64,000 nucleotides of DNA from Gemmatimonadota bacterium (GTDB lineage: Bacteria > Gemmatimonadota > Gemmatimonadetes > Longimicrobiales > Gaopeijiaceae), in assembly GCA_034521595.1 (NCBI GenBank), contig JAXHMG010000003.1, positions 1,472,001 through 1,536,000 of the forward strand, in the 5' to 3' direction. Each line of letters begins with the position of its first letter. Position 1 is the stretch's first letter. Below, one piece after another: positions 18,962 through 47,429 of this stretch. Both the position numbers and the translations under genes were made by a program. The notes beneath the pieces were generated by a model. That model saw only the letters and a program-made list of their open reading frames with translations. It did not search any database and was not told where the DNA came from.

Positions 18962-18971
18962 CGCTGGCCTC

Positions 18972-19240: not shown

Positions 19241-19616
19241 CTATGACTCCCTCGACCGATGAAGACGCAGTGTCCGGTCCAGGATCTCCGACTTCGCGGC
19301 CTGTTCCTCCTCCCCCGCCCGACACCCAGGCTTCCGGGGCACGTCCACGACGCGGATCCGGGGCGCGTGCTTCGTACCGACGTTGTCGATGTCGCCGCGC
19401 GCCACGAGATGCTGGAGGTGAGAGTACGAATACCCGCCGAGCTGGGCCGCCTCCTCCAGCGTGACCTCACGCAGCTTCCTCGGCCACGGCCGCCGCCTCA
19501 ACCTGGTCGGCATGCCGCTCGCAGGCGATAGCCAGACGCTCGTCACCGTAGGCACGGAAGGTCTTGGCTTCCATGCGCCAGGTCTGCACCAGAGCCGCGA
19601 GCGACGCCGATCTCAT
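19241..19616 (-). CDS. Excisionase-like HTH protein (frameshifted)
   Basis: VTLEEAAQLGGYSYSHLQHLVARGDI resembles HTH_17/Xis; upstream of int. Confidence 0.55.
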
Positions 19617-19619
19617 TAC

Positions 19620-24289: not shown

Positions 24290-24723
24290 TTATCGCCGTC
24301 CAGCGTGTAAGTCCACGGTCACCGCAGAGCTTACCGAGGGCACGCTTCCATCTGCCGTTACGGCCAGCCTGGTGACAGCTACAACGTGCCTGGCGCGATG
24401 GACGAAGCCTGACGGCAACGCGCCCCGTTTGATCGAGTCTGGGGTACGCCTCCAGATACACGAACTCGAGGACGAATGGCGAGGGAGCCTAGCTGAAACA
24501 GAGCCCCGAGGATCGCCAGCGGTATCCCCACGAGAACCATCGTCGCAGGCAGCGTGGGAAGATCCATAATGATCTGCCATATCGAGCCGAGTGCGGTTCC
24601 GGTCAGGGCGAGCCAAAGTCCGGAAAGCAAAGCCCACCAGCCCTTCAGCCCCAAGTAGTTGACGCCCACGGAGCGCGCCATTGCCCAGCGTGCTTTCCAT
24701 TTCTGCGGGGCTCGCACGTTCAA
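24290..24723 (-). CDS. Hypothetical membrane protein (frameshifted, end uncertain)
   Basis: Two hydrophobic helices in ORF 24379-24723. Confidence 0.35.
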
Positions 24724-24846
24724 ATCAGTTGCACCGATGAGAAAGCAGGCGACGTTGTCGGGGCCATTCCGGCAGCGCCCTCTCCAGGGCTACGGTTCTG
24801 GGATGGGGGACTAACGCTACGCCGGTTCCGGGTACGGCTCCGGGCC

Positions 24847-27987
<3,141 letters not shown>

Positions 27988-28030
27988 CGCTCTCCATCCC
28001 TCGAAAGCAAGGGGGACGTCCACGGAATCG

Positions 28031-29359
28031 TCACGAAGCGCTCGCCTCGACAAGCTCTTCCGCCACCGGCACCCGGATCTCCCCCGATATCAGCCTGGGA
28101 AGCAGTGTATCACGCAGAGCTGCAAGCACGCGGGAACTCCGCAGCCCTGGGTAGTGCTGGAACGAGCGGACCCGTGAACGCGCCAAAGGCCACGGCGACG
28201 CGCTCGTCTGAGAGGTAGGGCCAGGCGGTAATGTTCCAAGCGGTAATGGGTTCGGCTGCCTTCCACTCGAGCCGGTCATGCTCCTAATCGCAAATTGACG
28301 GAACGGCTCGTGGCGGGCCAGGCAATAGGCGAAGTGCTTCTCGGGAAGCGGGGGCTTCGGTCGGAGCACGATGTACTCCGTGGAGCCCCATCCGACCTGG
28401 CCATCCGCAAGATAGATCAACGTAAGCAGTCTTTCCGTTTTCCCAGACGCGGAGTGATACGTGCCATGAGGAGTATCACCGATTCAGCGAAACGCTCACA
28501 CGGGGAGCCATCAGGCCCGCTCCCCCATAGAGTCTGGGGTGTGGCCCTTGGTGGGCATGCTTGCCGTCGGCAGATACGGGGGCGGAGATCCCTCTGGACA
28601 AGCGGCGGGTAGGGTTGATGTCGATCACGTCTTTCAGACCAACGACTTCCCACCCCTCAGGCACTTTCCCCAATTCCGAATCCACCATCCGGTCCGGAAA
28701 TAGGTCGTACCAATGCTCAGGGAACCCCGGCAAGGACTCTCCTGGCTGCCACCGCCCTTCGATCTTCGGCGCGCACCGGCTCGAAGTCTACGAACCATGA
28801 CTTGAAGAGCGTGTGCGTCATTGCCTTCAAGCGTCTCCCATCCTGCGGGTCAGCTCAATCTTGTCGTCGAGCGTCCCGAGCACGTCGGCAATGTCACGCT
28901 GTTCGGAGACGGGAGGTAGCGTGACGATGAGATGATCCAATCAGGTCGACGGGACACGTTGCCGACCCGACGAGCCCGTCATCTGGCTAATCGCGTACGC
29001 CCTCACCTCACTCCACTGAGCCAGGTAGTAGGCGAAACCGGTGTCGCTCACGCCGGGGCGGCCGCGGATGACAATGAACTCCGTCGATCCATGGGCCCCC
29101 TCCGCACCACGTGAGTCGCGGTAGCGCGCGATCTTGCCGTTCTCAAGACACGGTGTGATTCGCGCCATCAGAACGTCGCCGTCTTGAAACCGGGCACCAC
29201 CGCCAGTGAACTCACGGCACTCAGGGGCGACAACGGTCCTTATGCCGGGCTCCACGGCTCCCATGTCTACGAAGGGGAAAGGTCGACCGCGCTCAAGCGT
29301 CACCGGAGGATTTATCTGAACCGCCTGACTTAGGGCAATTCCCGCCACTCGTCACGCAT
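28031..29359 (-). CDS. hsdS: Type I specificity subunit S (frameshifted)
   Basis: Two TRDs with ARITP..ENGK and GSTE(F/Y)[12 protein letters not shown] and [16 protein letters not shown] conserved regions. Confidence 0.88.
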
Positions 29360-30929
29360 ACCCAAGCCTCTCCAGATTCGCGGCGATGGCGTCGTCGAGG
29401 CCTGCAGCTTCAACTAGCTGCTGCTGCCGTTCCGCCACAAGATCCTCCATCTTCTGCTCGAACGGCTCGTCATCCTCCTCCAGGGCCTCGGTCCCCACAT
29501 AGCGACCGGGCGTCAGTTCATGGTTGTGTCTGCGGATCTCCTCAAGTGGCACACTCTTACAAAATCCCGGCACGTCATCGTACTCGCCGGCGCCCCTCTC
29601 ACCCCTCCAGGCGTGATATACATCGGCGATCTGTGTGATGTCCTCGCTCATCAGTTCCCGGTGGGTGCGATCCACCATCGTGCCCATCCTCCGGGCGTCG
29701 ATGAAGAGCACCTCTCCCCGCCGATCGCGGTATTTCCCATTGTTGCGGTCACGAGCAAGGAACCACAGGCAGACGGGGACCTGCGTTGAGTAGAACAACT
29801 GCCCCGGAAGCGCGACCATGCAATCCACTAAGTCCGCCTCCACGAGATTTTTCCGGATCTCACCCTCGCCCAGCTGCTGGGAGCTCATGGATCCCTTCGC
29901 CAGGACGAACCCCGCGGTGCCACGTGGGCGCGAGGTGATGCACGATGTGCTGGACCCAGGCGAAGTTGGCGTTGCCGGCCGGCGGGATCCCGAACTTCCA
30001 GCGCCTGTCGTCCTTCAGCCGCTCTCCACCCCAGTCACTGATGTTGAAGGGCGGGTTTGCGAGGATGTAGTCGGCCTTCAGGTCGGGGTGACGATCGTTG
30101 TGGAACGTGTCGCCGTGGTGCGATCTGACCCTCGATGCCACGGATCGCCAGGTTCATCTTGGCGAGCCGCCAGGTCGTGTAGTTCGACTCCTGGCCGTAG
30201 ATCGAGATGCTGGAGCGGGCCTTCCGCCATTGCCGTTGCCGTTCTGGTGCGCCCGGATGAACTCCACCGACTGTACGAACATCCCCGAGGAGCCGCAGCA
30301 CGGGTCGTAGACTCGGCCCTCGAAGCGGTTCCAGCATCTCGACCAGCAAGGGCGACGACGCAGCGAGGCGTGTAGAACTCACCGCCCTTCTTGCCTTCGG
30401 CGCTGGCGAACTGGGACAGGAAGTACTCGTAGACGCGGCCGAGCACGTCCTTTGGCCCTCGCCGACTCGCTCCCAACGCTCGATGTTGCTGATCAGGTCG
30501 ATGAGCTGGCCCAGCCGGGTCTTGTCGAGCGCCGGGCGGGCGTAGTCCTTCGGTAGCACACCCTTCAGCGGACGGGTTGTCGCGCTCGATGGCCGCCATC
30601 GCGTCGTCGACGAGCTGGCCGATGGTCGGCTGCTTGCGCTTGGTTCTTGAGGTGCGGCCCACCGCGCCTCGGGCGGCACCCAGAAGACGTTCGCGGCACG
30701 GTACTCGTCGGGATCCTCCGGATCCGCGCCCTGATCCTGCTCGTCGGTCAGCCGCGCCGTGTAGCTCCTCGAAGGCATCCGAGATGTACTTGAGAAAGAT
30801 CAGGCCGAGGACGACGTGCTTGTACTCAGCCGCGTCCATCGAGCCCCGAAGGGCGTCGGCCATCTTCCAGAGTTCGGCCTCATATCCGACGTTCGCGGCG
30901 CTATCGCTCGAAGTCTTGTTCTTCGTCAC
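29352..30929 (-). CDS. hsdM: Type I methyltransferase subunit M (frameshifted)
   Basis: [62 protein letters not shown]. Confidence 0.92.
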
Positions 30930-31293
30930 GGGATCTTTTGCTGGCGGGATGTGAGGAGGAGGTCGAAGATGGAAGCGCCCTCGTCGTGGATGGGTTCGGG
31001 ACGGAAGGTCCACCGAAAGCCCACCGGAGGCAAGGTATCCGGGTGGTTCAGCGGGAAGCGATCCGGACTCCGGTAACCGGGTCAACCTCCGATTGCCACG
31101 GGGTCACCGACCACCACCATGTCTTCGTTCTCTCGCACATCGGTCACCACCTCCGATGGCCCGCTCGCACCCTACCTTTCGCGAATCAGTTGCCCGGCGG
31201 AGTAATGCACGAGTCCTAGTCCAGTGGCTAGTCAGAACCCCAGGCGTCTGTTGCCGGCGCCGTGAATCTGTCCTACCAAGACGCGAGTCAATT

Positions 31294-32580
31294 TTATCCT
31301 CGTGCCCTTTGGCAGCTCGTCGACACACGGCATCGCACCGTTGGCACAACCCTCCACCTCCACTCACGCCCTCCTTCCACGGGCATCTGCGCGGCGCGGA
31401 GCTCGCGTTCCAACTCCCTGCGCCAACGGTCATCGTCGCTCATCTCGATATAGACGATTCCGTCAAAATCTGACGGGGCCTCCAACCTAGGACTCACGAG
31501 CGCGCACACCCTGGGTTGACCGAGATGGGCGAGGAAGTAACCGAGTTCGAGGATGACGTTCTGACGCGCCCTTGGCGCGAGCTCACCTGCCGCCGCTCCA
31601 CCCCGATCGTCACCCGTCATGACAATCACGGCGAAAGTGACTAGCTCCGCTTCTTCGATGAACTTGGTAAGTAGTACGGCGCCCCATGTTCGGCTGATCA
31701 TGGAGGACGATCGGATCCAAACCGAGCTCGACCAGAAAGTCGACAACTTCGGTTCGCGCTTTCTTCGTCCCGTCCGTGCACGACGAAGACACGGCGTGGA
31801 TGGCGCGTTTCTTCGAAGGCATCGGGAGGTGGGCCAGGACTCGCTCCGGCTTATGGCCTCTTCGTCCACGGACACGCGGTCAGCGGCATCTGGTCCAGAA
31901 AAGGCCCTTCTAACCAGGAACGCCGACAGCAACGAGCTCTCAGCCGTAACCGCCCCCGGGTTCTTCAGTGCAAATCTGATAATCTGGTTAGCACGGTCCC
32001 GGCGACTACCAAGCTCCCGACCAGCCTCCAGTTCGGTCACCCCAGCCTCTGAGCAGGAGATCGTCAATCTCCGTGTGACTCCAATCGGATATGACATTCC
32101 GGACTCGAATCAGGTCATTCCGAGGCGGTGTTGGTAGCCCCCGCGGAGTGAATCGCCCGAGCAGTTGAGTACTGACGTCAACGCCTCCCTGGGCCAAGAC
32201 GGCTAAGAGGTCGCCGCGTTTGACAGCCCAGTGATGTCGGCTGAACTCAAACTGTTCGATATCGAGGTGACCGCGGAGGCGCCAGATCGCGTCGTTGGTT
32301 AGCGGCTCGGGGCTAAGATCCTCAGAGACGGAAACCACGATATCACTGCCTGTACGGCGGATGGACTCGATCTCAACAAGGTACGCTCGCTCATCCGCAC
32401 GCCCCTCTTGCATAAGAAGGCAGGGCCAGGACTGGATAGACCTGCATCGCCTCGGAAGAGCGGCTTCGAAGTTGATCGGAAATGACCCGGACCGTGCTAC
32501 TCGAGAAACCGGGAGGGCTCGACGGTGACGAAATGTTCGTCGAGTTGCGCTACGTCGTTCGAGACTATCAGGTTGTACAT
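31294..32580 (-). CDS. TIR-like nucleotide-binding domain protein with uncharacterised N-terminal domains (frameshifted)
   Basis: C-terminal FAVIVMTGDD...RARQNVILELGYF...PSDFDGIVYI matches the CAP12/Pycsar-type TIR family; start MYNLIVS at 32580. Confidence 0.8.
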
Positions 32581-33030
32581 GCGGGCAGCTTACGGTCCCG
32601 TCACTGCCGCGGAAAGAGTCGGGTCCCAGGATAGCACGGGCGCCCAACCTCACTCGAATGAGGCACGTCGGTGACCGCGGGTGGCGTCACAAGGACCGTA
32701 GCCCGGGCGTCGGCGATCGCTGACCTGACCCCAGGGCCACTACCGGGAACTCTGCTGACATCGGGCTCTTGAACACTGATTCTCGGCCCGAACTCTACCC
32801 ACAATCTCACCCCCATACGGGAAGATCCGACGCGCAGAATCAGGCCGATTGACCTTCTTCGCAGGGAGAGACCGTATCTCGACCCGCAGCAGGCTCCTGG
32901 ATGCGGTCGCCACTTCTGAATTGCCGTGGCCCGGGTGAGCGCAAGAAAACCAGCGCTACTCCCAACAAGCTTCCCGTGCCTCAAGATCAAGACCAGCCGA
33001 TCGAGGATACGCTGCCTCGCGTCCGCTCTG

Positions 33031-33086
33031 GGCCATGTGGGGGAAGCGAACGAAGTGAGCGGAGCCGGAAACATACTTGTTATGTG
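33031..33086. repeat. attC-like hairpin repeat A (right arm only)
   Basis: GGCCATGT..GCGAACGAAGTGAGCGGAGCCGGAAACATACTTGTTATGTG, closely similar to the right arm of repeat C. Confidence 0.7.
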
Positions 33087-33294
33087 ATGGGTGCCGCTGT
33101 CCGTCGACATCAGTCACGTCTTGGGGTCAGTCCGCTCTTGCCATGGATCCTTCGCCGCGTCCATGATGCTCGGGTGAAGATCAAAGACATTATCCGTGTC
33201 AACGCCGGTTCAGAAGTGGACAGATCCGACGGAGTAGAGTTTGACACTTCCGGGTCGGGTTGGTTGGTCATCGGGGCATGAGGTTTCTCCTGGC

Positions 33295-34078
33295 TCAGGG
33301 GTGAGGGGACGGCGAGGCCGGCGTTTCTTCGGTGGCGGAGCCGGTAGCTTTCGCCGCGGATGTTGAGGGTGGTGGCATGGTGGAGTAGACGGTCGAGGAG
33401 AGCGATGGCGAGGACGGGATCGGGGAAGATCTCGTCCCATTGGCCGAAGCTCTTGTTGGAGGTGAGGATGATGGACTTCTGGGCCTGGTAGCGCTTGTTG
33501 ACGACCTCGAAGAGGAACGTGGCGTCGTGCTGCTCGAGGGGCAGATACCCGACCTCGTCGAGGATCGAGGACCTTGGGCCGGATCAGGACACGAAGCAGG
33601 ACAGTCGAGCCGGTTCTTCTCGCGATGGGCTCGGGAGCGGGTCACGAGGTCATGGAGCGTGAGGAAGTAGATGCGGTGCCCCTGCTCGATGGCCTTGAGC
33701 GAGAGGCCGATCGCCGAGGTGCGTCTTGCCGACACCGCTGGGTCCGAGGAGCAAGACGTTCTCGCCCTGATGCAGGAAGCGCAGCGTGGCGAGCTCGGCG
33801 ACGACGTCCTTGGGCACCTGAGGCTGAGCCTCGTAGTCGAAGTCTTCGAGCGTCTTGGGCGCCGGGCAGGCCGCTGAGCTTGAGGTTGGTGTTCACCCGC
33901 CGCTCGAAGCGAGCGGCGAGCTCGATGCGTGAGGAGCTCGTCGAGGACCTCGACCGGCGAGCTTCTCGCTCTTCTGGCCCCGCTCCAGGATCTCGATCGA
34001 GAGCCGTGAGCGCGGCTTCCAGCTTCGAGTTGATCGAGCTGGTCGCGGACCCGCTCGTAGCTGACCGCGCGCACTCAT
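33295..34078 (-). CDS. istB: IS21 helper ATPase (frameshifted)
   Basis: YERVRDQL.., GPSGVGKT region, DEVGYL, TSNKSF, AILDRLLHH across frames. Confidence 0.85.
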
Positions 34079-35408
34079 GAGGCGCCCCCGCGAGCAACGC
34101 GCTCATAGGCATCGAGCGCGCCTGGATCTCACGACGGGCGCGACCTGCTTGAGGCGATCGAGTCGACCGACGAGCCGAGCTCGGCCGCCGCGACGCGCTG
34201 CATCGAAGCGAGGCGGGCCGCCTCGTCGTCCGCACGCCTTCTGAGTCCACTGCCACGTGTGAGCTGGCGGATCGCCTTCGGCGTGCTCGGCGAGCGTGCA
34301 CGGCCGGCTCCCGGAGGTCGGACGCGATGCCGACCAGGAGCTCGGTCGCCGAGGTAGACGGCGAAGCACGTCCGTCGCTCCTCGGCGGCCGCACCATCAC
34401 CGTGTGGCCGCAGCCGCGGGTCGGGCACGCTGTAGCGCACGCCTCGGAAGCTGAAGTGAGCAGTCGGCGGCCACCTTACGGAGCTCGACGGGCCGCATGT
34501 CGTAGGCCGGCACCGCGCTCGCTCGCCGGAGCTCGGGCAAGCTCGACGACGGTGGCGATCCAGCCGGCCGCTCGCCCGTGGTGCCGTGCACCCGGACGTT
34601 CGCGACCGTGTCGAGCCAGTGCTCGAGCTGACGGTTCAGATCCTCGAGATCGGTGAAGTGAGCGGCCCTCGAGGAACGATTGCTTCACGTAGCCGACGCC
34701 CCGCTCGACCTTGCCCTTCACCCGCGGCCAGTACGGTGGACTCGCCACCGGCAGCACCTCGTAGTGCTCGCACGAAGTCCAGGAACGTGGCGTTCCAGCG
34801 CACCGTGCCCGTCGTCACGTCGTGCTGGTCGACCGCCTGCTTCATGTTGTCGACCAGCAGCTCGCGCGGGCACGCCCAGGCGCTCGAACGCCTCCTTCAT
34901 GCACGCCAGCAGGGTCGGCCGCTTCATCGACGTCGTGAAGCGCGCATACATCCGGCGGCTGTAGCCCAGAACCAAGATGAACACGCACAGCTTCTTCGTT
35001 CGCCGACCCTGCTCGATCGTACCGCACTCGCCCCAGTCGATCTGGGCCTGCCGGCCGGGCAGCGTCTCGAAGCGCTCCATCGACCCGACGCGCATGAACT
35101 CTGCCTTCAGCGGCCGCATGAAGTCGCGGAGGATCGTGAGCCCACCCTCGTAGCCGAGCCCCTCGAGCTCTCGCTTCAGCACCGTGGCCGGCAGGTCGAA
35201 GCGCCTCCAGGCGAGCCCGGATGTAGTCCTTGTACGGATCGAGCTTCGAAGCCCGCCCGGCCCGGGGCTTCGGATACGGCTCGGTCCGGTTCAGATGGTT
35301 GTAAACCGTCTGGCGCGTCACGCCCTGAGCGGCGCGCGATCTCGGCTGATCGTCACGCCCTCTTCGGCCAAAGAATTTGATCTGCATGTGCTTCTCCCGT
35401 AGCATCAT
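34076..35408 (-). CDS. istA: IS21 transposase (frameshifted)
   Basis: SKLDPYKDYI, RFETLPGRQAQIDWGE, LGYSRRMY, KGKVERGVGYVK. Confidence 0.88.
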
Positions 35409-36686
35409 CTGTCTCGAAGTCCTCCGGCGCGTGGGGCCGATCCTTGGTCGGACGACCCCAACCTAGCGCGCCAGAGGGCTTCTTTTTGGGTGAGGGGTTC
35501 CGGGGCCCTCTCCTCGCGCCTGCGGCGCTCGGGGCCCACGGCTCCCGCGGCTACGGAAGTGTCAAATTCTCAACCGTCGCTTCTGTCCAAGATCAAACCG
35601 GTGGGGACATCCGTGCGGCCCCAACCTTCTTCCGAGCGGCTTGGAACTGGTTCAGCCACTTCGATACCCTGATGTCGCTCTGGGCTGGCTCGGGAGTGCA
35701 TCCGCCCTGATTGCAGCCTTCTCTGCAGTGGTGGGTTGGATCGTAGCGCGACTCGCTTCGTTCGGACCGGTCCTCAGCTTCTTCCTCGCGCTAATCGCAT
35801 GGGTCTTGGTGTCTGTCGCCTTGGCGCTGAATCGATGGGTTCCAGGTTGGAATGCCCGCTCCCGAAGAGAAGGGGCCGTCCGAGCCTCTCGGGACCAGTG
35901 AGGAGTCTCCGACGGAACTCGTCTTCCACCTGCAGTCTCCGACCGAGACGTTTGACCTACGGATCGCTGGAGCCTTTCCGGGAAAGCTGGGCCTGATCGA
36001 GATCGCGAATCCGACCGAAGCCGTTGAGCGTCTCGGCGCGCTTCTCCTACCGACCGTATTCCGCCGGAATGACCTCTCTCATGACCCGATCTGGTGGTTT
36101 CGTGGCCATTCGAGCCAGTCCGTCGAGACGTTTCGTGATCTCGAAGGCGGCAGGTGCCTCCTCAATCACATGGAACTCACCTTACGGCGCGTCGTCGCAT
36201 ACCGCTCGATCGATACGGCCCACCAATTCGTCTATGTAGAGTGCGACCCTGATCCACCTGTTGGTTCGGATCCCCACTCGCTCCGTAGCCTTGAAGAAAG
36301 GGTCGCGGAACGCGGTTACGCGGCCGAGGAGTACGGCCTCTTTCGGGGCATGCCGTCACTCGGATGGAGTACGATGACGCTGCAGCCGTGGATTAACGGG
36401 AAGCTGTAGATTTCACCACGACGTCAGACCGAGCAGAGGTCAGGCGTCGGTTTCCTTACGAGGTTCAACTTCATCATCTGCGCGAAGTTCCATCCGCTGA
36501 AATCGGAACGCCCTGGATCAATCCGATGGAGGATATCCCGAATGCGATCCTCCGGGGTGGGGCGACTGTTGAAGATCTAGTCGAGCACATCCGGCAACTT
36601 CCGGCGCATCCAGGGGATGGAATGCACCTGGCCTAATCGCTCAGAAGCGAGACCAAGGAACCGATCCATCACCTGAAGGCACCTTT

Positions 36687-36840
36687 CACATAACGTTCAG
36701 ACGTTTCCGACGTGGCCACCACGGAAGCGCCCACGCTACCTACCCGAGCATACGCTGCGATCTGCTCTCGTGCCACAAAACTCCGAGGCCATGTAGGTGA
36801 AGAGAGCGAAGCGAACGGAACCGGAAACGTTCTGTCATGC
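36687..36840. repeat. attC-like hairpin repeat B
   Basis: CACATAAC-GTTCAG-ACGTTTCCG-ACGTGGCC...GGCCATGT...CGGAAACGT-TCT-GTCATGC. Confidence 0.75.
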
Positions 36841-36959
36841 AGACGCTCTGGGCCCCGCTGTGCTGAGGAACCGTGGGAGTCTAGTACACCTGCGCTGTCT
36901 GGCCTTACGGGGAGAGTATCGAGCCCCGATGGTCCGGATGAATCGATCGGCGAAGTCCC

Positions 36960-37630
36960 CAATTCCACCGGCTCGCCAAGGTTGCCAAGCCCGTCGCTGT
37001 GTCTTCCAGCTAAGGCAAACGCTGTGATGGGAATGGCCAGCGTGAGCATAACGATTCCGTTGCGCACCCCGGAGAAGCTGACCGAAAGAGCGTTTGACCG
37101 AAGATTTGTCACTTTCTGATTCTGTTCAACATAGTAGAGTCGCCTCGCTCGCGCCCTCGATTCCATCCTTAATGACGATCTCTTCGTTGAGCGCAGGTTG
37201 ATACGTCCGAGCGACTTTCATTGCCTCCAACGCCCACCAGCCAGCTGCCAGCAGGTAGATCGCGCCCAGATAGCAGGACCACGGCGACAGCCACCGCTCG
37301 GCGATCACTCGGAAGACCGAAGAAGTTGACGCTGGCAGACAAGATCGCGAAGGAAAGAGTCACCCCAATGATGTTGCTCTTAGCCTTGTCTTCGATGGAT
37401 CGTCGCCGTTCCAGCTCAATACCTTCAAAGAATCGGAGGCGGTCCTCATCGACCGCACTCGCCGTCTGTCGAAGCTCCTTCAGGTGGCAGGAGAACGCGT
37501 CGTCTCGATCCTCCAAGTCCTTAAGGATGGCTTTCCGAGCATTTCTAGCGGCCGGGATATCCAACAGAAAGCACACGGCTCATGCGAGTCACCATCGAGG
37601 AGAGCCGTCCCCCACGGTGATTATCCACGA
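36960..37630 (-). CDS. Membrane protein downstream of the ATP-grasp gene (frameshifted, ends approximate)
   Basis: RRRSIEDKAKSNIIGVTLSFAIL, LGAIYLLAAGWWAL, VRNGIVMLTLAI hydrophobic segments. Confidence 0.5.
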
Positions 37631-38567
37631 ATGAGAGCTCGTGCCAGAGTCAGGGATATCTCAAGGTCGAGAGCGGACTCCAGCCACACCCACTCTCCGA
37701 GAGGGTTGACCTCCAAGAAGAGGTATTCGCCGTCCCGCTCCATCAGGTCTATCGCCCCATATATCGAGCCCCAGGCGGTCCATCAGTCGAAGGCATCCAT
37801 CGACGACTTCGGTAGGCAATGTGGTCAGTCTATAAGACACGTCACCCTTGCGGAGCCGCCAGTCGCCGTCAATCGACTCGCCGTTGTCCGTGATCGCCAC
37901 CGCCCACCAGGTTGAGCCCACGATCGTAAGGCGAACGTCCACCTTTGGCTGGACACCTTCCTGTAGGACGTACGGCATCTACCGAGTTGCGGGCCTGAGC
38001 CTTGAATGCTTCAGCGCTCATCAGTGTCGTGTAGCCGAAATGGACGTCCGCATCGTCCTCCCAGAGCACGGTGTCCAATCCCTTTACGGCTACGCGCCCG
38101 GCACCAGGAAAGTGGTCAAACGGCCAGTTGCCGATTCTCGTCCATGGGATTTGCAGCCCGGCCTCAACCGCGACCGCGAGCTGCTCAAGCTTGTCGTTCG
38201 GATCTGTAGATCGCGAACGGAGAGTTGATCCAATGCCCACCTGCGGCGACCAATGAGCGGAGCATCGTCTCCCAATGGAGATGTCTCAACTGACTCGGCC
38301 CGGGACTCCCATGCGTTCGAACATACGCAGGCCGCTTGCAGTAGACGGAGTGAGGACCGGACACCGTGAAGGCCTGTCCTGAGGACTCACCGAAGATTGT
38401 CTTGGCTACCGGGTCGACGCTGATCCGGACCGGAGATCCTCGGTATTCAGTCGTTGGTAGGAGGCGTCTAGGTCACGAAGGTGCCCAACGACCAAGTCAG
38501 CGCCGAAATCGAATCGCGACGTGATCAGCAGGATCGTGGGAGCCGAAGAGGAAATGTCGTTACTCAA
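37621..38567 (-). CDS. ATP-grasp ligase, RimK/MvdC-D-like RiPP maturase (frameshifted)
   Basis: ILLITSRFDFGADLV..YQRLNTEDL, DKLEQLAVAVEAGLQIPWTRIGN, QEGVQPKVDVRLTIVG, DWR, FLEVNPLGEW. Confidence 0.8.
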
Positions 38568-38776
38568 TATCCCTTCTGGTCCTCTCCGGTTTCGACGTCG
38601 TTCTTCTTCGTCTGGGGGCGGGGGCCTTCCGGCCGCCTCATCAGCAGTTCTCCCGATTCCGAGTGAACCCACGCGCCGATCTTCGGGTCATATGCTGCCC
38701 CCCTAGGTGTGGGATCGGATGCGGGGCGCGAGTTCCTGACTGCTCCTGCTATCAGCATGTGCTTAGACAGTTGCAT
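38564..38776 (-). CDS. Putative graspetide precursor peptide (70 aa)
   Basis: GGAGG RBS; C-terminal core TKKNDVETGEDQKG rich in T/K/D/E; stop overlaps the ATP-grasp start. Confidence 0.7.
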   Translation of the reverse strand: MQLSKHMLIAGAVRNSRPASDPTPRGAAYDPKIGAWVHSESGELLMRRPEGPRPQTKKNDVETGEDQKGY

Positions 38777-38869
38777 CGATCCTCCAGGACGTGATGACAT
38801 ACGACAAGACATGGGGCGGCACGAACACTATCCGTTTCTCTACAACAAGAGGGGTCCAGAGTGTCTCAT

Positions 38870-40368
38870 AGACACGATGGAAGGGCTGGCCTCCTGGTTT
38901 TTTCGTGGATTAGCATCCCGAAGTAGCCCGGAGTGCCAGAGCCACCTGCGGCGTTCGAGCCGCACAGCCCAGGAGACCAGCCCATGTCTGCGCCAATCTT
39001 CTTCGTCGGCCTCGACGTGCACAAGGACACGGTGACGGTCGCGGTGTTTCGCAACCGCGATGTGGAGCCGATGCGGGTCGATCGACTTCCCCACGACCAC
39101 AAGAAGCTGCGTCGCTACTTCCAGCGTCTCGAGGCCGAGGGCTCGAGTCCGAGCCTGCTACGAAGCCTCCGGGGCGGGCTACGTGCTGCAGCGCGCGCTC
39201 ACCGAGTGGGGCATCGCCTGCGAGCTCGCCGCTCCGTCCCTCATTCCGAGGCGAGCGCGGTGAGCACCGCAAGACCGATCGACGCGATGCGATCGAGATC
39301 GCCCGGGACTTTCGCGACGATCGCCGCGTGCTCATCCACATCCCCACCGAAGCCGACGAGCGCGTCCGCGACTTGGTGCGCTGCCGCGAGACCTTCCAGC
39401 GCGAGATCGTCAAGTCACGCCATTACATCCTGAAGTTCCTGCGCCGCCGAGGCTTCATCTACCGCGACGGCACGCACTGGACCACGCGCCACATGAACTG
39501 GATCCGACAGGTGCTCGAGCCCGGCACCCTCGCCGAGGAGGACGGCGTCGTGCTCGCCGAGTACCTTGCGCTCCTCGAGTACGAGTTGCAGCGCAGAGAC
39601 GAGCTCGACCGCAGGATCGAGGCCCTGGCGCTCACGCCCCGCTACAAGCCCCTCGTCGACCGTATCCGCTGCTTCCGGGGCTTCAAGACCCAGGCGGCCA
39701 TGGTGCTCGCCACCGAGATCGGCGACGTGCGTCGCTTCGAGAGTCCGCGCCAGCTCATGGCCTATCTCGGACTCGTGCCCGGCGAGAACTCCTCGGGCGA
39801 TCGAAGGCGACTCGGGGCCATCACCAAAGCCGGCAACGCACGCGTGCGTCATGTGCTCATCCAGGCCGCCTGGCAGTACCGACGACGGCCTGCCGTCGGT
39901 GTCACCCTCCGGCGTCGTCAGCAAGGTCAGGACCCGGCCGTCATCGCCCATGCCTGGAAGTGTCAGGACCGTCTCTACAAGGTCTTCCACCGCCTGGCCG
40001 CCAAGAAGCCCAAGCCCGTCGCCGCCACGGCCGTCGCACGTGAGATGGTCGGCTTCCTGTGGGCCGTGCTCAACGACATCGATGTCGCCCAACTCCAGGA
40101 CGCGGAGGTGAGCCGAGCCGCCTGACCCCGATCCTGACACTTCACGTCCGGAAGGAGAGCGCCCGGGGCACGATAGGAGAACGCCTCGAAACGTTATGGG
40201 GTCCGGCTCCGTGCCCAATCCCCGCACATAGACTCCGGCCAGCTCCCGACGAATCCGTCTCATGATGCTCTGAGCCTCAACGCTCAACCATCGAATATCA
40301 GCAGGATGCATCGTCGAAGACGCCCCGGCCTCTCCTTCGGACCGCGACTTGACAACACCCTTCCATAT
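38870..40368 (+). mobile_element. IS110-family (IS1111-type) element
   Basis: Subterminal IRs ATGGAAGGG (38877-38885) / CCCTTCCAT (40358-40366); long 3' non-coding region; TTGACA at 40349; ends approximate. Confidence 0.8.
38984..40125 (+). CDS. IS110 transposase (frameshifted near the 5' end)
   Basis: FVGLDVHKD, CYEA, KTDRRDA, AYLGLVPGENSSG, GAITKAGN. Confidence 0.9.
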
Positions 40369-40421
40369 CAGGCGACCGGAACCGGGGCGTCCGTGGGCGT
40401 GGTGCGCCGGACCCGGAGCTC

Positions 40422-40793
40422 GTGGAGCGCCCTCGGCGTCGTACGTTCACGGCGGCCTACAAGCTCAAGATCGTGCAGGAAGCGGACGCGTGCGAGAAGC
40501 GGGGCGAGGTGGGCGCGTTGCTGCGTCGTGAGGGGCTCTACACGTCCCACCTCTCGGCGTGGCGCAAGGAGCGCGACAAGGGAGCGCTCCAGGCGCTGTC
40601 GAAGCCTCGGGGTCGGCCGAAGCCGGATCCACGCGACGGCGAGATCGAGCGGCTGCGCCGGCGTGCGGAGCGAGCCGAAGCCGAGCTGGCCACGGCCCAC
40701 AAGGTCATCGAGGTGCAGGGAAACGTCTCGGCGCTCTTGGAAGAGCTGCTCCAGGCTGGGGGCGCGAAGCAGAACGGGAGCAGCGAGCGGTGA
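40422..40793 (+). CDS. IS3 OrfA (5' part probably missing)
   Basis: RRRTFTAAYKLKIVQEAD..GALLRREGLYTSHL. Confidence 0.85.
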   Translation: MERPRRRTFTAAYKLKIVQEADACEKRGEVGALLRREGLYTSHLSAWRKERDKGALQALSKPRGRPKPDPRDGEIERLRRRAERAEAELATAHKVIEVQGNVSALLEELLQAGGAKQNGSSER

Positions 40794-41794
40794 CGGAGCA
40801 GGCCGTGGAAGAGCTCACGCCACTGATCGGGACGAGTCCGGCGTGCCGGGCCCTCGGGACGGCACGGGCGACGATCTACCGGCGTCGGCGTCCACCCGAG
40901 CCCCGGCCCCGGAAGCCTCGGCCGAAGCCGGCGCGGGCGCTCTCGGAACAGGAGCGCGACGCGGTGCTCGAAGCGCTGCACTCCGAGCGCTTCGTCGATG
41001 CCTCACCGGCACAGGTCTGGGCCACGCTGCTCGATGAAGGCCGTTACCTGGCGTCGGAGCGCACGATGTACCGCCTCCTGGCCGAGCAGAGCGGGAGCCG
41101 GGAGCGGCGCGACCAGTTGGTCCATCCGGCCTATGCCAAGCCGGAGTTGCTGGCCACGCGGCCCAACGAGCTCTGGAGCTGGGACATCACCAAGCTCCTG
41201 GGGCCGGCCAAGTGGACCTACTTCTACCTCTACGTCATCCTGGACGTCTTCAGCCGCTACGTCGTGGGCTGGACGATCCAGCACCGTGAGTCGGCCTCCG
41301 TGGCCCAGCAGCTCATCGCCCAGAGCATCGAGCAGCAGGACGTCGGGGCCGGCGAGCTCACGATCCACGCCGACCGCGGCACCTCGATGCGCTCGAAGCC
41401 GGTCGCGTTCCTGCTCGCCGACCTCGGCGTCACGAAGACGCACTCGAGGCCCTACACCTCGACGGACAACCCCTACTCCGAGGCCCAGTTCAAGACGCTC
41501 AAGTACCGGCCCGACTTCCCCCACCGCTTCGCCTCGATCCTGCACGCGAGGTCCTGGGCCCGGGGCTTCTTCGCCTGGTACAACCATGAGCACCGCCACT
41601 CCGGCCTTGGCCTCATGACCCCGACCACGGTCCACTACGGCCGGGCCGACGAGGTCAGGGAACAGCGTGGTGAGGTGCTCGAGGCCGCCTACGCGGCCAA
41701 CCCCGAACGCTTCGTGCGCGGGCTACCCCAGCCGCCCAAGTCGCCCACCGCAGCTTGGATCAACCCACCCGCCACCGAGGAGGATGCTCACTAA
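40790..41794 (+). CDS. IS3 OrfB DDE transposase
   Basis: WSWDITKL, LDVFSRYVVGW, HADRG, DNPYSEAQFKTLKY; uninterrupted. Confidence 0.92.
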   Translation: MTEQAVEELTPLIGTSPACRALGTARATIYRRRRPPEPRPRKPRPKPARALSEQERDAVLEALHSERFVDASPAQVWATLLDEGRYLASERTMYRLLAEQSGSRERRDQLVHPAYAKPELLATRPNELWSWDITKLLGPAKWTYFYLYVILDVFSRYVVGWTIQHRESASVAQQLIAQSIEQQDVGAGELTIHADRGTSMRSKPVAFLLADLGVTKTHSRPYTSTDNPYSEAQFKTLKYRPDFPHRFASILHARSWARGFFAWYNHEHRHSGLGLMTPTTVHYGRADEVREQRGEVLEAAYAANPERFVRGLPQPPKSPTAAWINPPATEEDAH

Positions 41795-42149
41795 TATCAG
41801 ACCACCTTCTGTCTCATCGGCGTTGACAGGTTCCGCTTCACGCTAGATACGTACGGATGCTTCGGCCCAGAACTGAAACAGAAAAAGCGACGGGCCGCGC
41901 CCGCCGCCACCCTATCCGTCCGCGGTCTTGCTTCGGTCCTTCTTAATGGTGTTATGAGTCGTTGCAGGCACGGTCGTCGTCACCGTACCGCTACCCCTTC
42001 TTTGGCTCGTTGGTCGTATACTGTCCCACGATCGACGGCACCTCTCCTGGTACGGCGCTCCAGATCCTCCCCTTCGCTCGATCAGGTCTGAGAACAGGGC
42101 AACTGTGTCGAGATGAATACCTCTTTCGCTCTCCTCCTTACGGCGGCTA

Positions 42150-42937
42150 AGCCAATTACCTTCTCCTGGCCCTCCGTGCGATAGCGTTCAATCGCATCGG
42201 GTGACTAGCTGATCGGCAGGATCGGAGCTTCGGCTCTGCAGGGACTCCCGAAGTTTGTGATGCACGACGGCCAGCCCGGCAACGTACTCACGGATCAGCG
42301 GTACTCAGATCGACCACCTCCCCAAGATCGGCCAGTTCATCGAGAACGTTCGACTGAAGCCTCCATCCTCCCGGAGACGCTCGGTATCGATGCTCGGTAC
42401 TATTGCATTTCGGCGGGTCGAGCCTTCTTCAAGTCGGTCGCGCCAGAACTGATGGGACATGCGCACCGCACCGCAACTCCCCGGGTGCTGCGTGTAGTTC
42501 CGAAGGGCCTCCATCGCCCGGTATCCGAGACGGGAGTCATACTCGATGGATCGCCATGCGTTGAACCGGGCAAGACCGGTCCGAGTCTTTGCCGAATCGG
42601 CAGCTGAGTAGGTGACGGCGCCTGATCCAGGTATCCTCTTCCACCCGAAAGGAGGTTCACGACTCTTCGGTCGACATCGTGGATGGTTCCGACCGCACTC
42701 GGACCAAGACCCCTCTGTACAGAGGAGTGAATACAACGCCCGATCGAGCAGGGCACCTTCGTACTCATAGAAGTTTGCCAGGACGAGATGGAAGCCTTCT
42801 TCCAAAGCGAGGGCGTCCACCAGTAGACCCTTGGCGTCCTTCAGCTCCTGGAAGTCGCTCCGATCAAGCGGGAGGAATGGTGTCTTCCCGAAGACGGCGA
42901 TCTGACCAGAGCCGTGTCCGACCTGATCATCGTTCAT
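42150..42937 (-). CDS. Cassette-borne hypothetical protein with RxxxxH (HEPN-like) motif (frameshifted, end uncertain)
   Basis: DRRVVNLLS and YRAMEALRNYTQH; flanked by 18-bp inverted cassette ends. Confidence 0.5.
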
Positions 42938-43020
42938 ACGGAAATCTGGATTGCTGCGTTTACCAAGAGAGAAGAGGAGGGACACCCCCCCGACGTCGCG
43001 CGAGATCCAGCCTGCAATGA

Positions 43021-43140
43021 CTCATAACGAATCAGGGGTTTCCGAACTTGCGGCCTGGCGCGGCTCGTCGCGCTCGCACGAGACGTGACAGGGCGGAAGT
43101 CAGGCCGGAGGGGCCCCGGAGCCGGGAACCCTCACAGTGG
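43021..43140. repeat. attC-like hairpin repeat E (divergent)
   Basis: CTCATAAC-GAATCAG-GGGTTTCCG...CAGGCCGGAG..CGGAGC-CGGGAACCC; same layout as B/C/D with a degenerate right core. Confidence 0.55.
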
Positions 43141-43179
43141 AGGGCTGAAATCGCGCCCCGACCCGTGACCATCCGTCCT

Positions 43180-43900
43180 ATCGGGACCCATCCCAAGTGC
43201 GGGCTTTACGGATGCGCGTTCGAATCCTTCTCGGCAGTAGCGGGTCTCCCGCATCCAACCGGTACTTTCGCGAAAGTAATTCTCAGCGACGTTCTCCTGC
43301 CTTGCCTGCTTCCCCCAGTCGCACCAAAACAGGAGACAAACGATCTAAGATCCGGATGTCTCCCGAGATACCTCGTCTCCACGCAACTCTTGGAGGAGCT
43401 CACCGACAAAACCCTCCCTCCCGCTGTATCCCCGCATACTCATCAATCGTCCTGCAGAGCCTCTTCTATGTACATCCGAGCTGCCGCACGCACACTCCGT
43501 CTTCTCTAGAGACTTCGCCCGATCAGCAGCAGCGCTGAGACTCATTTCTCAGCTTCCAGAATCTTTGGTTAGCTTCATAGTCTATCACCCTCCCGAAATT
43601 GATCCAGTTTACCAAACTCTCATTTTCCCGCGCCATCCAGCGGGCCTCAAGGTCCTCTGCACCTTCCTCATCGAGATCGTCAGCCAAGATGAGAACCTTG
43701 TACTCGTCGTCGAGATGCCTCTTCACGTAGAATTCCCAGAGCTCATGCCCATTCTTCTCCCACGCACGGCGCCCCTTGCCCTTCCCGACGTAGAAGATCT
43801 CGCCATCGCGATCCACATGCGCGTACACGTAGAACCGACGCGGATTCGTTCGATCGGCCTCGTCGGATGGTGTCAGCCTCTGAGGCGAAGTGGAGTCACT
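43180..43900 (-). CDS. GIY-YIG nuclease-domain protein (frameshifted C-terminus, ends approximate)
   Basis: FYVYAHVD..IFYVGKGKGRR..E..N motif set. Confidence 0.75.
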
Positions 43901-43980
43901 GAGTGACAGAGCGATACCGCGATTGGTAAAATGAAACAGCAGCTCGTTATGTGGCGTGCTGCACTTGGTCCATGACGCCA

Positions 43981-45069
43981 CTACTGCTCGGGGTAAACAC
44001 CCAACAACGCGGCGACGCTTGCTTTCCACTCCTCTCGGCACCCCCTCATCGCGACAGTAGCTCCGAAAGCGACTTCAATTTGTGTTGAAGAGGGGTGAAC
44101 GAGGTTCGCTCGACGTTGAATATCGGTGACCGCCTCTAGATCAGCGCTGAACCCAGTCGATGGACAGTACGCGATCCTCACCGGTTTCGATGAGGTGGTA
44201 CCTTCTGGAAACGACCGCCCTTCGCTCTGTCTACAATCAGCAGAGGACCACGAGGCCGACGCCCTTCTACGTCTGCGGCGGCGAGCAACGCGGTTCCCAT
44301 CACGGGAACTAAGGTCATGAGGCCCAACCGGAGATAGATCGGGGTCATCTGCCGATGCTCCATCGAAGACCTCCTTCGGGTAGCATCCAGTAACATCCGC
44401 CATCTCCCCTTCGGGGATGGCCGCTCGGGCGAACCGACCGCCTGCCGCCGGCCAGGCGTCTGATTAGAGCGATCGCAATCGCCGCGCAACGATCCAGATT
44501 CTCTTCAGGATAGTCACTGACGACGAGGAAGCCGTCGCCAAACTGATGCGCGAAGAGCCGCTCCCGTTCCTTCGGAAACACACGACGACCGATGCGGGCG
44601 ATGGCAGCCATGAGTTCGCCAATCGCCTGCACGTGGTCCCGCGACGATCGCTGCTTGAAGCCCTGAACGTCGATGTACAGTGACGATCGGTCGTCAGCGG
44701 AAGCAACCGTCGCTCCGAAAGGAGAGCCTCTCCGCCCTTTGCCACTGATCTCGCTCGCCAAACCCATCCTGTGGAGAGCCAGAAGCAGAACCGTGCAATT
44801 GCAGTTGTGGCCTCTCTGGCTGCGGTACCGAACACCTCGGGCGACATACTCCTTGAGATCCGTGGTCGCGGACGTACCGTCCGGCGGAATGCTGAAACGC
44901 ATGATAGAGAGCTTCCACACCAACGTAGAACCGCGAGTGGCCACGTTGGTAGCAGAGCCGTCGGTCGTCGGACGAGACGATCTTGGTGGTGCCGCCGCCT
45001 GGATTCTCAAGGAGCGTGCCCTGGGGGCACGCTGTCGCCCAGCCTGTGCGAGAACTGAGTAAAATCCAT
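43981..45069 (-). CDS. Class III nucleotidyl-cyclase-like protein (frameshifted)
   Basis: YIDVQGF, QFGDGFLVV and VMGTALLAAA correspond to the two metal Asp motifs and the G..N.AA region of class III cyclases. Confidence 0.5.
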
Positions 45070-45129
45070 GGAGATCGGCGCCGCCTCCCGATAGAGCTTC
45101 CAACTCACGGCACCTCGTTCCTAGCATGC

Positions 45130-45287
45130 CACATAACGTTCAGATGTTTCCGACGTGGCCACAGCATATGCGCTCATCTTTCCTGGGCCTTCGGAGTGCA
45201 GCTGACAGCATACGATATCAGCACGTTCGAGGCCATGTAGGTCGGAGCGAACGAAGTGAGCGGAGCCGGAAACATTCTTGTTATGTG
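45130..45287. repeat. attC-like hairpin repeat C
   Basis: CACATAAC-GTTCAG-ATGTTTCCG-ACGTGGCC...GGCCATGT...CGGAAACAT-TCTT-GTTATGTG. Confidence 0.8.
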
Positions 45288-45335
45288 ATGGCCTTTCGCT
45301 GTTTCCCTACACCGATTCGCACTCTTGGGCAGCGG

Positions 45336-46533
45336 TCAGCTTCGGGCAAGTTCGTAGATCCGAGCGTACTCGACCTCAAGTTCGTCCCGCCAGACCCCGA
45401 CCACTTGGTCCCCCAGGATCTGAGTCGGGCGGAGCCGCTGATCGGGAAACTCGACGGTGCCGAGCCAGACTCCTTCACGATCGAAGACAGCCCAAGAACG
45501 AGCATCACCATCGTACGAAAAGTCCTGGACCCAAAGGAACCCCTCACTGTCGACAAGGAACCTCGAGTAGGCCGGTCGGCTCTGAGGTTGCGGCTGCTCT
45601 TGGTAACGGGCCCGAAGACCAGGTCGAGCGCCTTCTGGAGCTGCGAGCACTCGTGCCTCAACAGCGGCGTCGTAGGACACCTCATCCAATCGGACGTCGA
45701 CATCCGATCTGCGGATCAGACTTCGGAGGATACCGTCCTCAGAATAGACGCCGATCTGGTATGCATCTTGAGAACCCTGAAGGATCTCCTCACCCCGGAC
45801 TGCGTGACTCACCGACCGGGCCAAGAGAGGACGGAGCATCTCCACAGTCTGAGGGCCGTACATCAGGATCCGTTCCGAGCCCGGAGTCACGAGGACCGTG
45901 TCTTCCAGCGCTCCGGAGTGGGTCGATCCGGACGTAGGCTGCTCCGAACCTAGTCGGAGACCGGCGGGCAACTCGTCGATGATCGCCGACGAGAATGCGA
46001 GGTGCGCGGCCGGCGCGACGAGCCCCCGCGACGAGCCGACCGGACCAAGTCCTGCGTCGTCCACCGCAGCCCGGGCAACCCGAAACGGTCCGCTCTCGGG
46101 ATCCAAGACCGTGATCCTCTGCTGCGCGCCCGTCGAAGTCCCAGAGCGAGTCGGCGTTCAGCCCGATGGAAGGTCAGGCCCTGAAATTCCCCGGGCCCTT
46201 CGCCTGACCGACCGAACACGGAGATAGGGTTGCCAAGCAGGTTAAAAAGCTTGACCTGGCTGGCACCTTCGTCGAGCACGGCGATCCTCTCGCCGTGAGA
46301 ACGAAGACGCCCGAGAGCCGGTCGAACGCCGCATCGCCGTCCAGGCTACCCAGGCTCAGAACCGGATCCTGAGATACCTGCCATACCTCATGATCATTCC
46401 AAGCGGGACGACTGTTCTGCACGATCCGAATGCCGGCGCTGTCTTGGACGGCAACTGCAACGGGAGGAACTTCGTCAGACCCGCAGGCCGTGCAGATCAG
46501 AAGACAACCCAAGAGCGCTAGTCTCACCCGCAC
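45336..46533 (-). CDS. 6-bladed beta-propeller lipoprotein (frameshifted)
   Basis: Lipobox CTAC; DSAGIRIVQN, FGRSGEGPGEF, VDSEGFLWV, FDREGVWLG, DELEVEY. Confidence 0.8.
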
Positions 46534-46560
46534 GTTCTCCTCCGTCCAAAGAATGGCTTT

Positions 46561-46721
46561 CACATAACGTTCAGATGTTGCCGACGTGGCCCACCACCGC
46601 TCCCTCCGGAGCCGGCCACCCGTCATGAATACGGCTTAGGCGCTCAACCCGCCACACCCGTTCCGGGCCATGTAGGCCGGAGCGCCCGCAGGGCGCGGAG
46701 CCGGCAACATACTTGTTAGCA
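46561..46721. repeat. attC-like hairpin repeat D
   Basis: CACATAAC-GTTCAG-ATGTTGCCG-ACGTGGCC...GGCCATGT...CGGCAACAT-ACTT-GTTAGCA. Confidence 0.8.
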
Positions 46722-47429
46722 GATGTTGGCTTCCTGTGGTCCACGCCACACTTACGGTTGACTTCACGAGGGACGTCGCGTCGACGGCTATCCGTCCCGG
46801 TGGTTCGACCTGAAACGGAAACCCCGCGGACACACGGTCGAGGGATCGCGCGAAGGAAGCCCAAGGAGCGAGCAGACCGAAGGTGTGGCCCCAGTCGACC
46901 GATGATGCCTCGGAGCGGGTCAACGCGCGATTCACCAAAACCTCTTTGGCGCCGTCGACGAAGAACCCGCCGGGTGGACATCGCAGTCGTGGATCGAGCC
47001 CGCCCGACCGTGTGGAGCCACACGGGGGGAGGGACAGCGGCGAATCCATAGGGTGGTGGGCGTGACTCGAGCCGAAGGTGCGAACCCCAGTCGACCGTAG
47101 ATGCCTGGGAGGATGTCAACGCACGAGGAGTTGAAGGCGTCGCCGCTGTCCTCGAACCTGACCGTCCATGGCCAATGTCCGCTAACTGGTTGTTGCCGCA
47201 GAAGTGTGTCGCTTCTGCTCCTCGTCCTAGGCGGGATTCCCGACGTTGAGGATCTGGGGCTGGAGCGTCTGAGTAAGTTACCTCCGGTCTCCGCAACGTT
47301 CGCTCCCCCTCGGCGGAGCGCAAGGTAATCGCTCGGCGAAGGATCCGGGTGAGTCGGCGGGCGAGTCACGGCCTCCATCCGGTCGGCTGACGGTGGACTG
47401 GACCACGACCACACGTACGTCGAGACCTT

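Follow-up and report, generated by a model that had tools for sequence, protein, structure and literature searches.

Cassette-specific inverted ends in an integron-type array of a Gemmatimonadota bacterium as probable split outer stems of attC sites

Why should the two ends of a gene cassette be complementary to each other over a stretch that differs from one cassette to the next? The question is raised by a 64,000-nucleotide stretch of a Gemmatimonadota contig (hereafter the window; C3 and C1 are contigs of this genome, G000), in which units of DNA flanked by attC-like repeats end in inverted arms that change from unit to unit. A sequence-only reading of the window took the units for integron-type cassettes and assigned both arms of each pair to a single cassette, and the attC repeats and the pairing of partners described below agree with that assignment. 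We consider it likely that the arms of each pair are the separated halves of an outer R-box stem, which belongs to the attC of the cassette that they bound, within an integron-type array that is read on the minus strand. Pairing of R' with R'' makes the R box (PMC5027507, in its accessible sections). Strand exchange takes place within the conserved R' triplet, which leaves the R' half ~0.25-3.7 kb away from the R'' half, on the opposite end of the cassette. In the array, a resident attC combines the R'' of one cassette with the R' of the cassette next to it, in line with the description of array attC sites as chimeric in the available part of PMC4889954, and there only the conserved positions (1-5, 8-9 and 12) can pair.

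The attC repeat is ~155 bp long and is present in the window in three complete copies (36688-36840, 45131-45286 and 46562-46721) and one partial copy (32968-33084). Its layout on the plus strand is an AAC core, a spacer, a GTTTCCG box, a variable middle, a CGGAAAC box, a second spacer and a GTT core. Alignments, profile and folds all show the imperfect palindrome, the RYYYAAC/GTTRRRY bounds and the inner L boxes that characterize attC sites, with sites E, F and G being degenerate. A profile built from the three complete window copies and searched with nhmmer detected 29 attC copies at E < 1e-5 in this genome; 16 of them form one main array (C3:1531-32693), two are on contig C1, and the rest are in smaller groups that include the window. 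G003, a genome of the same genus, has 52 copies. All six inverted pairs that had been reported from the window are present, five of them strong, and the sixth, in cassette K6, needs one indel and has degenerate cores. The arms and attC sites of the window array are as follows:

32968..33084, minus strand: attC A, a remnant at the far end of the array (profile positions 47-155 only; nhmmer E 1.5e-13, C3:1504968-1505084)
33079..33095, no strand: K7 R''-side arm, partner of 36678-36694 (15/17 complementary; matrix score 12/14)
36678..36694, no strand: K7 R'-side arm with the AAC crossover core at its end (inverted pair with 33079-33095)
36688..36840, minus strand: attC B, complete, right core degenerate (GTC) (nhmmer E 5.3e-39; alignment)
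36834..36856, no strand: K6 R''-side arm of the weak pair, partner of 38851-38869 with one indel (ungapped 3/14)
38851..38869, no strand: K6 R'-side arm, core decayed and cut by an insertion (pairing, junction inspection)
41951..41968, no strand: K5 R''-side arm (17/18 complementary)
43011..43028, no strand: K5 R'-side arm, AAC at its end (matrix score 14/14)
43022..43148, minus strand: site F, degenerate attC-like, left core and L box recognisable, right core GTG (fold z -1.93, weak)
43946..43960, no strand: K3 R''-side arm (14/15 complementary)
45123..45137, no strand: K3 R'-side arm, AAC at its end (pair with 43946-43960)
45131..45286, minus strand: attC C, complete (nhmmer E 3.2e-45)
45280..45293, no strand: K2 R''-side arm (12/14 complementary)
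46555..46568, no strand: K2 R'-side arm, AAC at its end (pair with 45280-45293)
46562..46721, minus strand: attC D, complete, part of cassette K1 (nhmmer E 7.3e-37)
46715..46730, no strand: K1 R''-side arm (13/16 complementary)
47171..47186, no strand: K1 R'-side arm of the first cassette beside the attI-like site (identity to the main-array copy stops at AAC, 47186)

The specificity of the arms for their partners was determined by scoring the window arms against one another in a 6 x 6 matrix, with 14 positions per arm pair (positions 4-18, position 11 omitted). The five strong partners scored 12, 14, 11, 12 and 10, the gapped pair scored 3, and every non-partner cell was at or below 9. A blind scan of the window for GTT...AAC pairs of like quality returned 17; the reversed sequence gave 7, and five block shuffles gave between 6 and 14. 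One such inverted match alone is not beyond chance, and a blind scan cannot by itself find cassettes; the pairs are significant because their arms are anchored on attC repeats.

At first sight, inverted termini of 14-18 bp around units of 0.5-3.6 kb resemble the ends of small transposons, similar to miniature inverted-repeat transposable elements (MITEs) or insertion sequences (ISs), lodged between the attC repeats. Such elements would have identical termini and target-site duplications, but the arms differ from unit to unit outside a short shared box and no target-site duplication was seen at the unit ends in the junctions inspected. Every unit abuts an attC repeat, and the units are contiguous and co-oriented. 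Additionally, no transposase was found among 56 of the 57 open reading frames (ORFs) of the cassette region, which have no Pfam match, and the sole match, an ArsR regulator, lies outside the array. That the arms are transposon ends is barely credible.

The split-stem reading was examined over a larger set of 63 neighbouring attC pairs, at most 4.5 kb apart, of which 17 are from this genome and 46 from G003. The partner stem reaches at least 14 bp in 57 of the 63, compared with 4.4% of non-partner combinations; its median length is 18 bp, and 53 of the 63 fall within 15-20 bp. Positions 1-10 are paired in 65-100% of partners in this genome and in 83-100% in G003, pairing falls to 0-2% at position 11, returns at positions 12-17 (76-100% and 85-98%, respectively) and reaches background by about position 20. 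At the variable positions (6, 7 and 13-18), 7.02 of 8 are paired, compared with 2.60 +/- 0.20 in permuted partners, and none of 10,000 permutations reached the observed value. Core pairs of the same attC and non-partner combinations show 22-45% pairing at these positions.

The sequence of the stem is not fixed. Among 32 de-duplicated stem clusters, three to four Watson-Crick pair types occur at each variable position, with 25-31 stems paired at positions 6, 7 and 13-17 and 17 at position 18. The stem is built of five conserved base pairs (GTTAT/ATAAC), two co-varying base pairs, a conserved GAyGT/AyrTC box and 5-8 further co-varying base pairs. Position 11 falls within the GAyGT/AyrTC box; in 60 of the 63 pairs the GTT-side arm has G there and the AAC-side arm T, which places a G.T mismatch on the plus (bottom) strand. 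The earlier proposal that the pairing runs well past the core and differs for each cassette is borne out by this median length and co-variation. The co-variation shows that the pairing is maintained; it gives neither when nor for what purpose.

This last point bears on a different explanation, in which the arms are a fossil of the genesis of the cassette or its attC (for example, from a palindrome), have no present function and are co-inherited since the crossover never separates them. Both arms always remain with the cassette, and descent alone would keep them together. The arms also persist at decayed window sites, and window K1 has an uncompensated change that is absent from its twin in the main array. 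On the other hand, the stem clusters remain 78-97% paired at positions 6, 7 and 13-17 in spite of their three to four pair types, most cassettes have stems of similar length, and so constant a position-11 mismatch is unlike neutral decay. Homologous short cassettes of G003, with bodies 84-90% identical, also have stems that differ from each other and are internally complementary. We regard a purely fossil origin as unlikely: the co-variation argues for pairing that has been kept up, and none of these results supports the earlier idea that the stems may record how cassettes arise.

If the arms are a split attC stem, the strand of the cassettes and the point of crossover have to be established. 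The sequence-only reading had placed the crossover at the plus-strand G|TT, which corresponds to plus-strand cassettes with each attC owned by the body on its left. The duplicated units break elsewhere. C3:17549-21416, which has an insertion sequence inside, duplicates C3:32540-34032, and window 46558-47186 duplicates C3:31915-32543 with 93% identity. In both, the matching stretch opens with the AAC core of the left-hand attC and breaks off exactly at the next AAC, at a resolution limited to the shared triplet; these are discrete units with a crossover inside the R' triplet, as expected of an integron. In five close pairs of repeated cassettes in G003, the left attC is 95-100% identical, the bodies 88-100% and the right attC 72-81%, the latter being at the background identity between attC copies (76 +/- 7%). 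One G003 pair is contrary and shares its right attC (72/86/90% for left attC, body and right attC), and three are ambiguous. Over 21 homologous G003 pairs, which are not independent of one another, the left attC is shared in 11 and the right in 10, and in the eight pairs with bodies at least 90% identical the count is 7 to 1.

The reading frames and the array ends point in the same direction. In 46 of 58 units the minus strand carries the longest ORF, which often starts 10-90 nt past the AAC core, ends 30-100 nt short of the GTT core and in many cases fills the unit, so that most cassettes consist of one co-oriented ORF followed by its attC. Additionally, a recombinase gene and an attI-like junction (AAC-TG(G/T)TT) are located at the right end of the arrays in this genome and in G003, and with its G.T wobble the plus strand is the one favoured for folding. 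The plus-strand 5' arm is two bases longer than the other (spacers of 8 and 6 nt). Compared with the classical layout, this asymmetry could be taken to mark plus as the top strand; it is an ambiguous guide, and the strand call relies on the duplicates, ORFs and attI junction instead. Plus-strand cassettes are very unlikely. Because the duplicates, repeated cassettes, ORFs and array ends agree, the cassettes are read on the minus strand and every attC is that of the body to its right. The crossover is at the plus-strand AA|C core (R'); the plus-strand GTT is R'', with which the attC of the same cassette starts. In plus coordinates a cassette begins with the C of AAC, continues with the ~155-bp attC, GTT (R'') and the gene body, and finishes on the AA of the following AAC core (R'). 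The arms do map the cassette boundaries, as had been proposed, by partner complementarity, with the true boundary at AA|C rather than at GTT.

The consequences of this arrangement for folding were examined in silico with 58 cassettes. When circularised, their plus strands have a mean folding energy of -46.9 kcal/mol, compared with -36.8 kcal/mol in the array context, and the circular form is lower in 56 of the 58. Circularised sites are thus predicted to fold better than chimeric array sites by ~10 kcal/mol. Within the circular form, the plus strand is more stable than the minus strand in 48 of the 58, by 2.1 kcal/mol, and there are 3.34 G.T pairs per minimum-energy fold on the plus strand and 2.64 on the minus strand. 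In the predicted folds, 3 nt bulge out of the 5' arm next to the AAC core and a single nucleotide bulges from the 3' arm. In the accessible sections of PMC5027507, the bottom strand is the substrate of recombination, is cut between A and C, and is enriched in G:T mispairs; the predicted plus-strand stability and G.T excess fit this published use of the bottom strand.

The full stem would form only in an excised cassette, whether circular or single-stranded, where it would make the recombinogenic hairpin of the bottom strand ~10 kcal/mol more stable than it is in the chimeric resident sites. The gain from the outer stem would favour capture of a free cassette at attI and would leave resident sites less foldable, and the G.T wobble, which is C.A on the top strand, would bias folding toward the bottom strand.

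The only IntI-like recombinase of this genome is encoded on the minus strand at C3:34259-35458 (L001:1195-2394), at the attI end of the main array, and is transcribed toward the array; no other IntI candidate was found in this 93%-complete genome. The protein has 399 aa, with an N-terminal SAM-like domain (PF13495, typical of IntI), a catalytic domain and an unassigned N-terminal extension of ~120 residues. The closest solved structure is the Vibrio integron integrase IntI4 (2a3v), and the recombinase has 25 residues where IntI4 has 67, or ~42 fewer at the IntI-specific insert. Its TIGR02249 score is 213.5 bits, under the cut-off of 265, and the archaeal XerA model scores almost as well. The definition of an integron integrase in the available part of PMC4889954 requires an additional ~35-residue domain near patch III, and by this published definition the recombinase is not an integron integrase. 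Its nearest relatives are from Gemmatimonadota metagenome-assembled genomes (MAGs), at 59-64% identity. The 59-residue spacing between its KDR and HxLRH motifs recurs in six related loci, and besides Gemmatimonadota and Acidobacteriota the short form is found at one locus of a Spirochaetales MAG. In G000, G003, L014 and L017 the array is situated behind the 3' end of the recombinase gene, and L019 also carries both the gene and an array. At L016, which has the same recombinase family and a 10-kb flank, self-BLAST gave no short direct repeats and no array was seen.

The right end of the main array reads AAC then TGTTTATTTCCG and is ~230 bp from the recombinase stop codon. In G003 (L011), a recombinase gene that is 65% identical has the same position and orientation behind AAC then TGGTTATTGCCG, and the conserved junction beside the recombinase in both genomes is AAC then TG(G/T)TT...TTCCGACGT. 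A related sequence terminates the window array:

47187..47340, minus strand: attI-like site, no integrase gene behind it (matches to the main-array/recombinase interval and to G002:C161)

This segment has collinear matches to the interval between main array and recombinase with E values of 5e-5 and 0.029, window 47183-47338 matches G002:C161 at 73%, and the likeness of 47187-47340 to the G003 junction was judged by eye. The window has no TIGR02249 match, its best tblastn match has an E value of 0.25, and its one PF00589 fragment (17736-18287) is 15 kb from the array, beside a tRNA gene. By these sequence matches, the window array may be an integron platform that has lost its integrase, or it may be a duplicated platform end.

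Several observations weigh against the split-stem interpretation. The strand bias of 2.1 kcal/mol is modest, the purine skew is absent (0.507), and no strand bias is seen in the array context (24/58). The extra unpaired bases lie on the plus-strand 5' arm beside the cleaved core, which may differ from the classical extrahelical bases, placed near L'' in the accessible sections of PMC5027507. The only candidate recombinase is without the IntI-specific insert, and IntI-type chemistry here is an assumption. In six of the 63 neighbouring pairs the stem does not exceed 7 bp, and sites E and G keep their arms without any attC fold, so the arms can outlast function. Six classical cassettes already pair over 7-13 bp, which makes the extension one of degree. 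Finally, the four public runs, all of them contigs, gave no evidence of excised circles; many of their short joints link one arm to another (for example, 45293 to 46555), but they contain unknown letters and have sides of 20-31 nt, which makes them uninterpretable.

A broader proposal, which we make tentatively and hold to be doubtful, is that these arrays represent a lineage-distinct integron-like branch in the Gemmatimonadota, with a shorter form in Acidobacteriota. The insert-less recombinase would read a longer R arm (12 conserved positions with the fixed G.T wobble) instead of, or besides, extrahelical bases, and a private outer stem present only in the circle would make free cassettes far better substrates than resident sites, a built-in preference for capture over loss. 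If such a branch exists, tools that require the IntI insert would file its arrays as clusters of attC sites lacking integron-integrases (CALINs). The locus suggests an unrecognised type of integrase beside the main array for some of the "integrase-less" attC clusters of soil phyla. If the stem and wobble are functional, they would provide a testable handle on how free cassettes are preferred over resident sites, and another on how the bottom strand is chosen with an integrase that has no domain for reading extrahelical bases.

The new strand and boundaries correct the cassette map of the locus, including the assignment of each attC to its gene, and partner-end complementarity maps the boundaries even where an attC has decayed or has been cut by insertion sequences. 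K1 (46568-47185) and K2 (45137-46567) have intact attC sites. Between 43028 and 45136 there are arms at 43946 and 45137, and the attC-like sites F and G are degenerate with no clear fold; on the left side of the K3 R''-side arm (43946) no distinct attC fold is predicted (z -1.39). To the left of the K5 R''-side arm, 41800-41950 does not fold as an attC (z +1.95), and the K5 attC position is cut by a 2.9-kb insertion with IS110-family and rve transposase ORFs. K6 spans 36694-38869 and its cores are decayed (GTC; no AAC). The arms of K7 are at 33079 and 36694, and its body contains a 2.4-kb IS-like insertion. The two insertions are:

33192..35608, minus strand: IS-like insertion in the K7 body with a 5-bp direct repeat, ATCCG (89% identity to C3:18830-21200)
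38870..41813, plus strand: insertion with IS110-family and rve-type transposase ORFs, bounded by repeated TGTCTCAT (Pfam, junctions)

The larger insertion encodes an IS110-family ORF at 39328-40122 (PF02371, 74.3 bits) and an rve-type ORF at 40559-41791 (PF00665, 78.4 bits), and it sits exactly in the decayed attC crossover core, between the copies of the bounding repeat. Some IS110/IS1111 elements target attC sites. Both copies of the smaller IS-like element, that of the window and that at C3:18830-21200, are within cassette bodies. A contig from another metagenome lacks the window copy, with 33191 directly followed by 35609; the ORFs of the window copy are split over several frames, with one rve fragment under the Pfam cut-off. 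The sequence-only reading had suggested a search for the same cassettes in other contexts. In six same-genus genomes, a DNA search with 35614-47400 matched attC repeats, the attI-like piece and the paralogue of K1, and nothing else; K1 does have a paralogue, in the main array, and the other cassette bodies are unmatched.

The region to the left of the array (17553-32653) contains a tRNA gene, a phage-type integrase fragment and primase-like ORFs (DUF5906, DnaG zinc ribbon). It also contains a type I restriction system, in which HsdR and HsdM are each split over several ORFs, and an ORF (31297-32097) with a TIR domain of the CAP12/Pycsar type. Its appearance is that of a defence island in decay; assembly errors are another possible source of the many split genes. 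An Rfam scan of the window returned tRNA only. An inverted pair at 23041-23058 and 25248-25265, inside the restriction-system fragments, has the GACGT/ATGTC signature and the position-11 wobble. This hit of the blind scan is probably a chance match, with no attC-like sequence or fold beside it.

Related arrays provided three further observations. In G003 (L008-L011, for example C1 near 995-1014 kb), a ~255-bp cassette is present in at least eight copies of two variants. The bodies of the variants are 84-90% identical, and their outer stems differ on both arms yet are complementary, being of the CCCTCAGAC or the TCACTGAGC type; either both ends changed in step or bodies were exchanged. A G-rich stretch follows the stem ~20-30 nt past the R' core, at the 5' ends of the minus-strand cassettes, in both G000 and G003. 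A GGTTCGG-like motif is present in 25 of 63 cassettes, compared with 8 of 63 control flanks, and may be part of the translation start region. In L017 (4128-12274), the recombinase gene and ~2 kb are duplicated 6 kb apart (86-95% identical), each copy being followed by its own attC array.

How these arrays relate to known systems can be judged from several comparisons. Classical integron cassettes have the same imperfect palindromic attC, AAC/GTT cores and inner L box. They also share the triplet crossover, with R' and R'' at the two ends of the cassette re-pairing only in the circle (PMC5027507 and PMC4889954, accessible sections), and G.T pairs that favour the bottom strand (PMC5027507, likewise). 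The classical baseline was taken from eight cassettes of two plasmid-borne integrons with annotated integrases (Vibrio gangliei and Diaphorobacter). Their partner stems are 11, 10, 13 (with one mismatch), 12, 8 and 7 bp, as best-of picks from a small sample, and two cassettes are uninterpretable. The figure of about 7 bp, which had been taken as established for the pairing of classical cores, is too low. The suggested comparison of outer stems with known attC sites does show longer stems here (a median of 18 bp against 7-13 bp in the six cassettes), a difference in degree from a small sample. The near-invariant position-11 mismatch also sets the present stems apart from the classical ones, as do the nearby recombinase without the IntI insert, its gene pointing at the array, and the attI-like site behind the 3' end of that gene.

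The window array resembles a CALIN, as described in the available part of Cury et al. 2016 (PMC4889954), in having at least two attC sites (four are detected by the profile) and no adjacent integrase. Unlike a CALIN, it ends at an attI-like site, whose homologues are the recombinase-side junctions of the main array and of G003.

A further comparison is with the sedentary chromosomal integrons of the Vibrio cholerae repeat (VCR) type of Vibrio, with VCR-like sites being present in L060. Arrays of the VCR type, like those described here, have attC sites of ~120-160 bp that are homogeneous at the species level and dozens of mostly ORFan cassettes with high turnover between related genomes. The VCR-like cassettes of L060, however, pair over 10-13 bp and not 17-20, and those few have no fixed internal mismatch.

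The Acidobacteriota loci L017 and L019 share with this genome the short recombinase with the 59-residue KDR-HxLRH spacing and a partner-specific, co-varying R stem. Their partner stem differs in being exactly 9 bp in 10 of 11 adjacent pairs, with the exception spanning an inserted 2.9-kb module. When the attC profile was applied to distant loci only two weak matches were obtained, both in L014, a locus of another Gemmatimonadales MAG with a different attC family. There the partner stem is 12-18 bp with the same position-11 mismatch, in pairs that are readable by eye only, as the pattern-based site list contained spurious sites. A literature search found, in the accessible portions of the papers, no statement on attC complementarity past the 7-bp cores, with older subscription papers on 59-base elements lying outside the search. 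Taken against these systems, the 17-20 bp stem with its fixed wobble is a lineage-specific extension of a known feature of integron cassettes.

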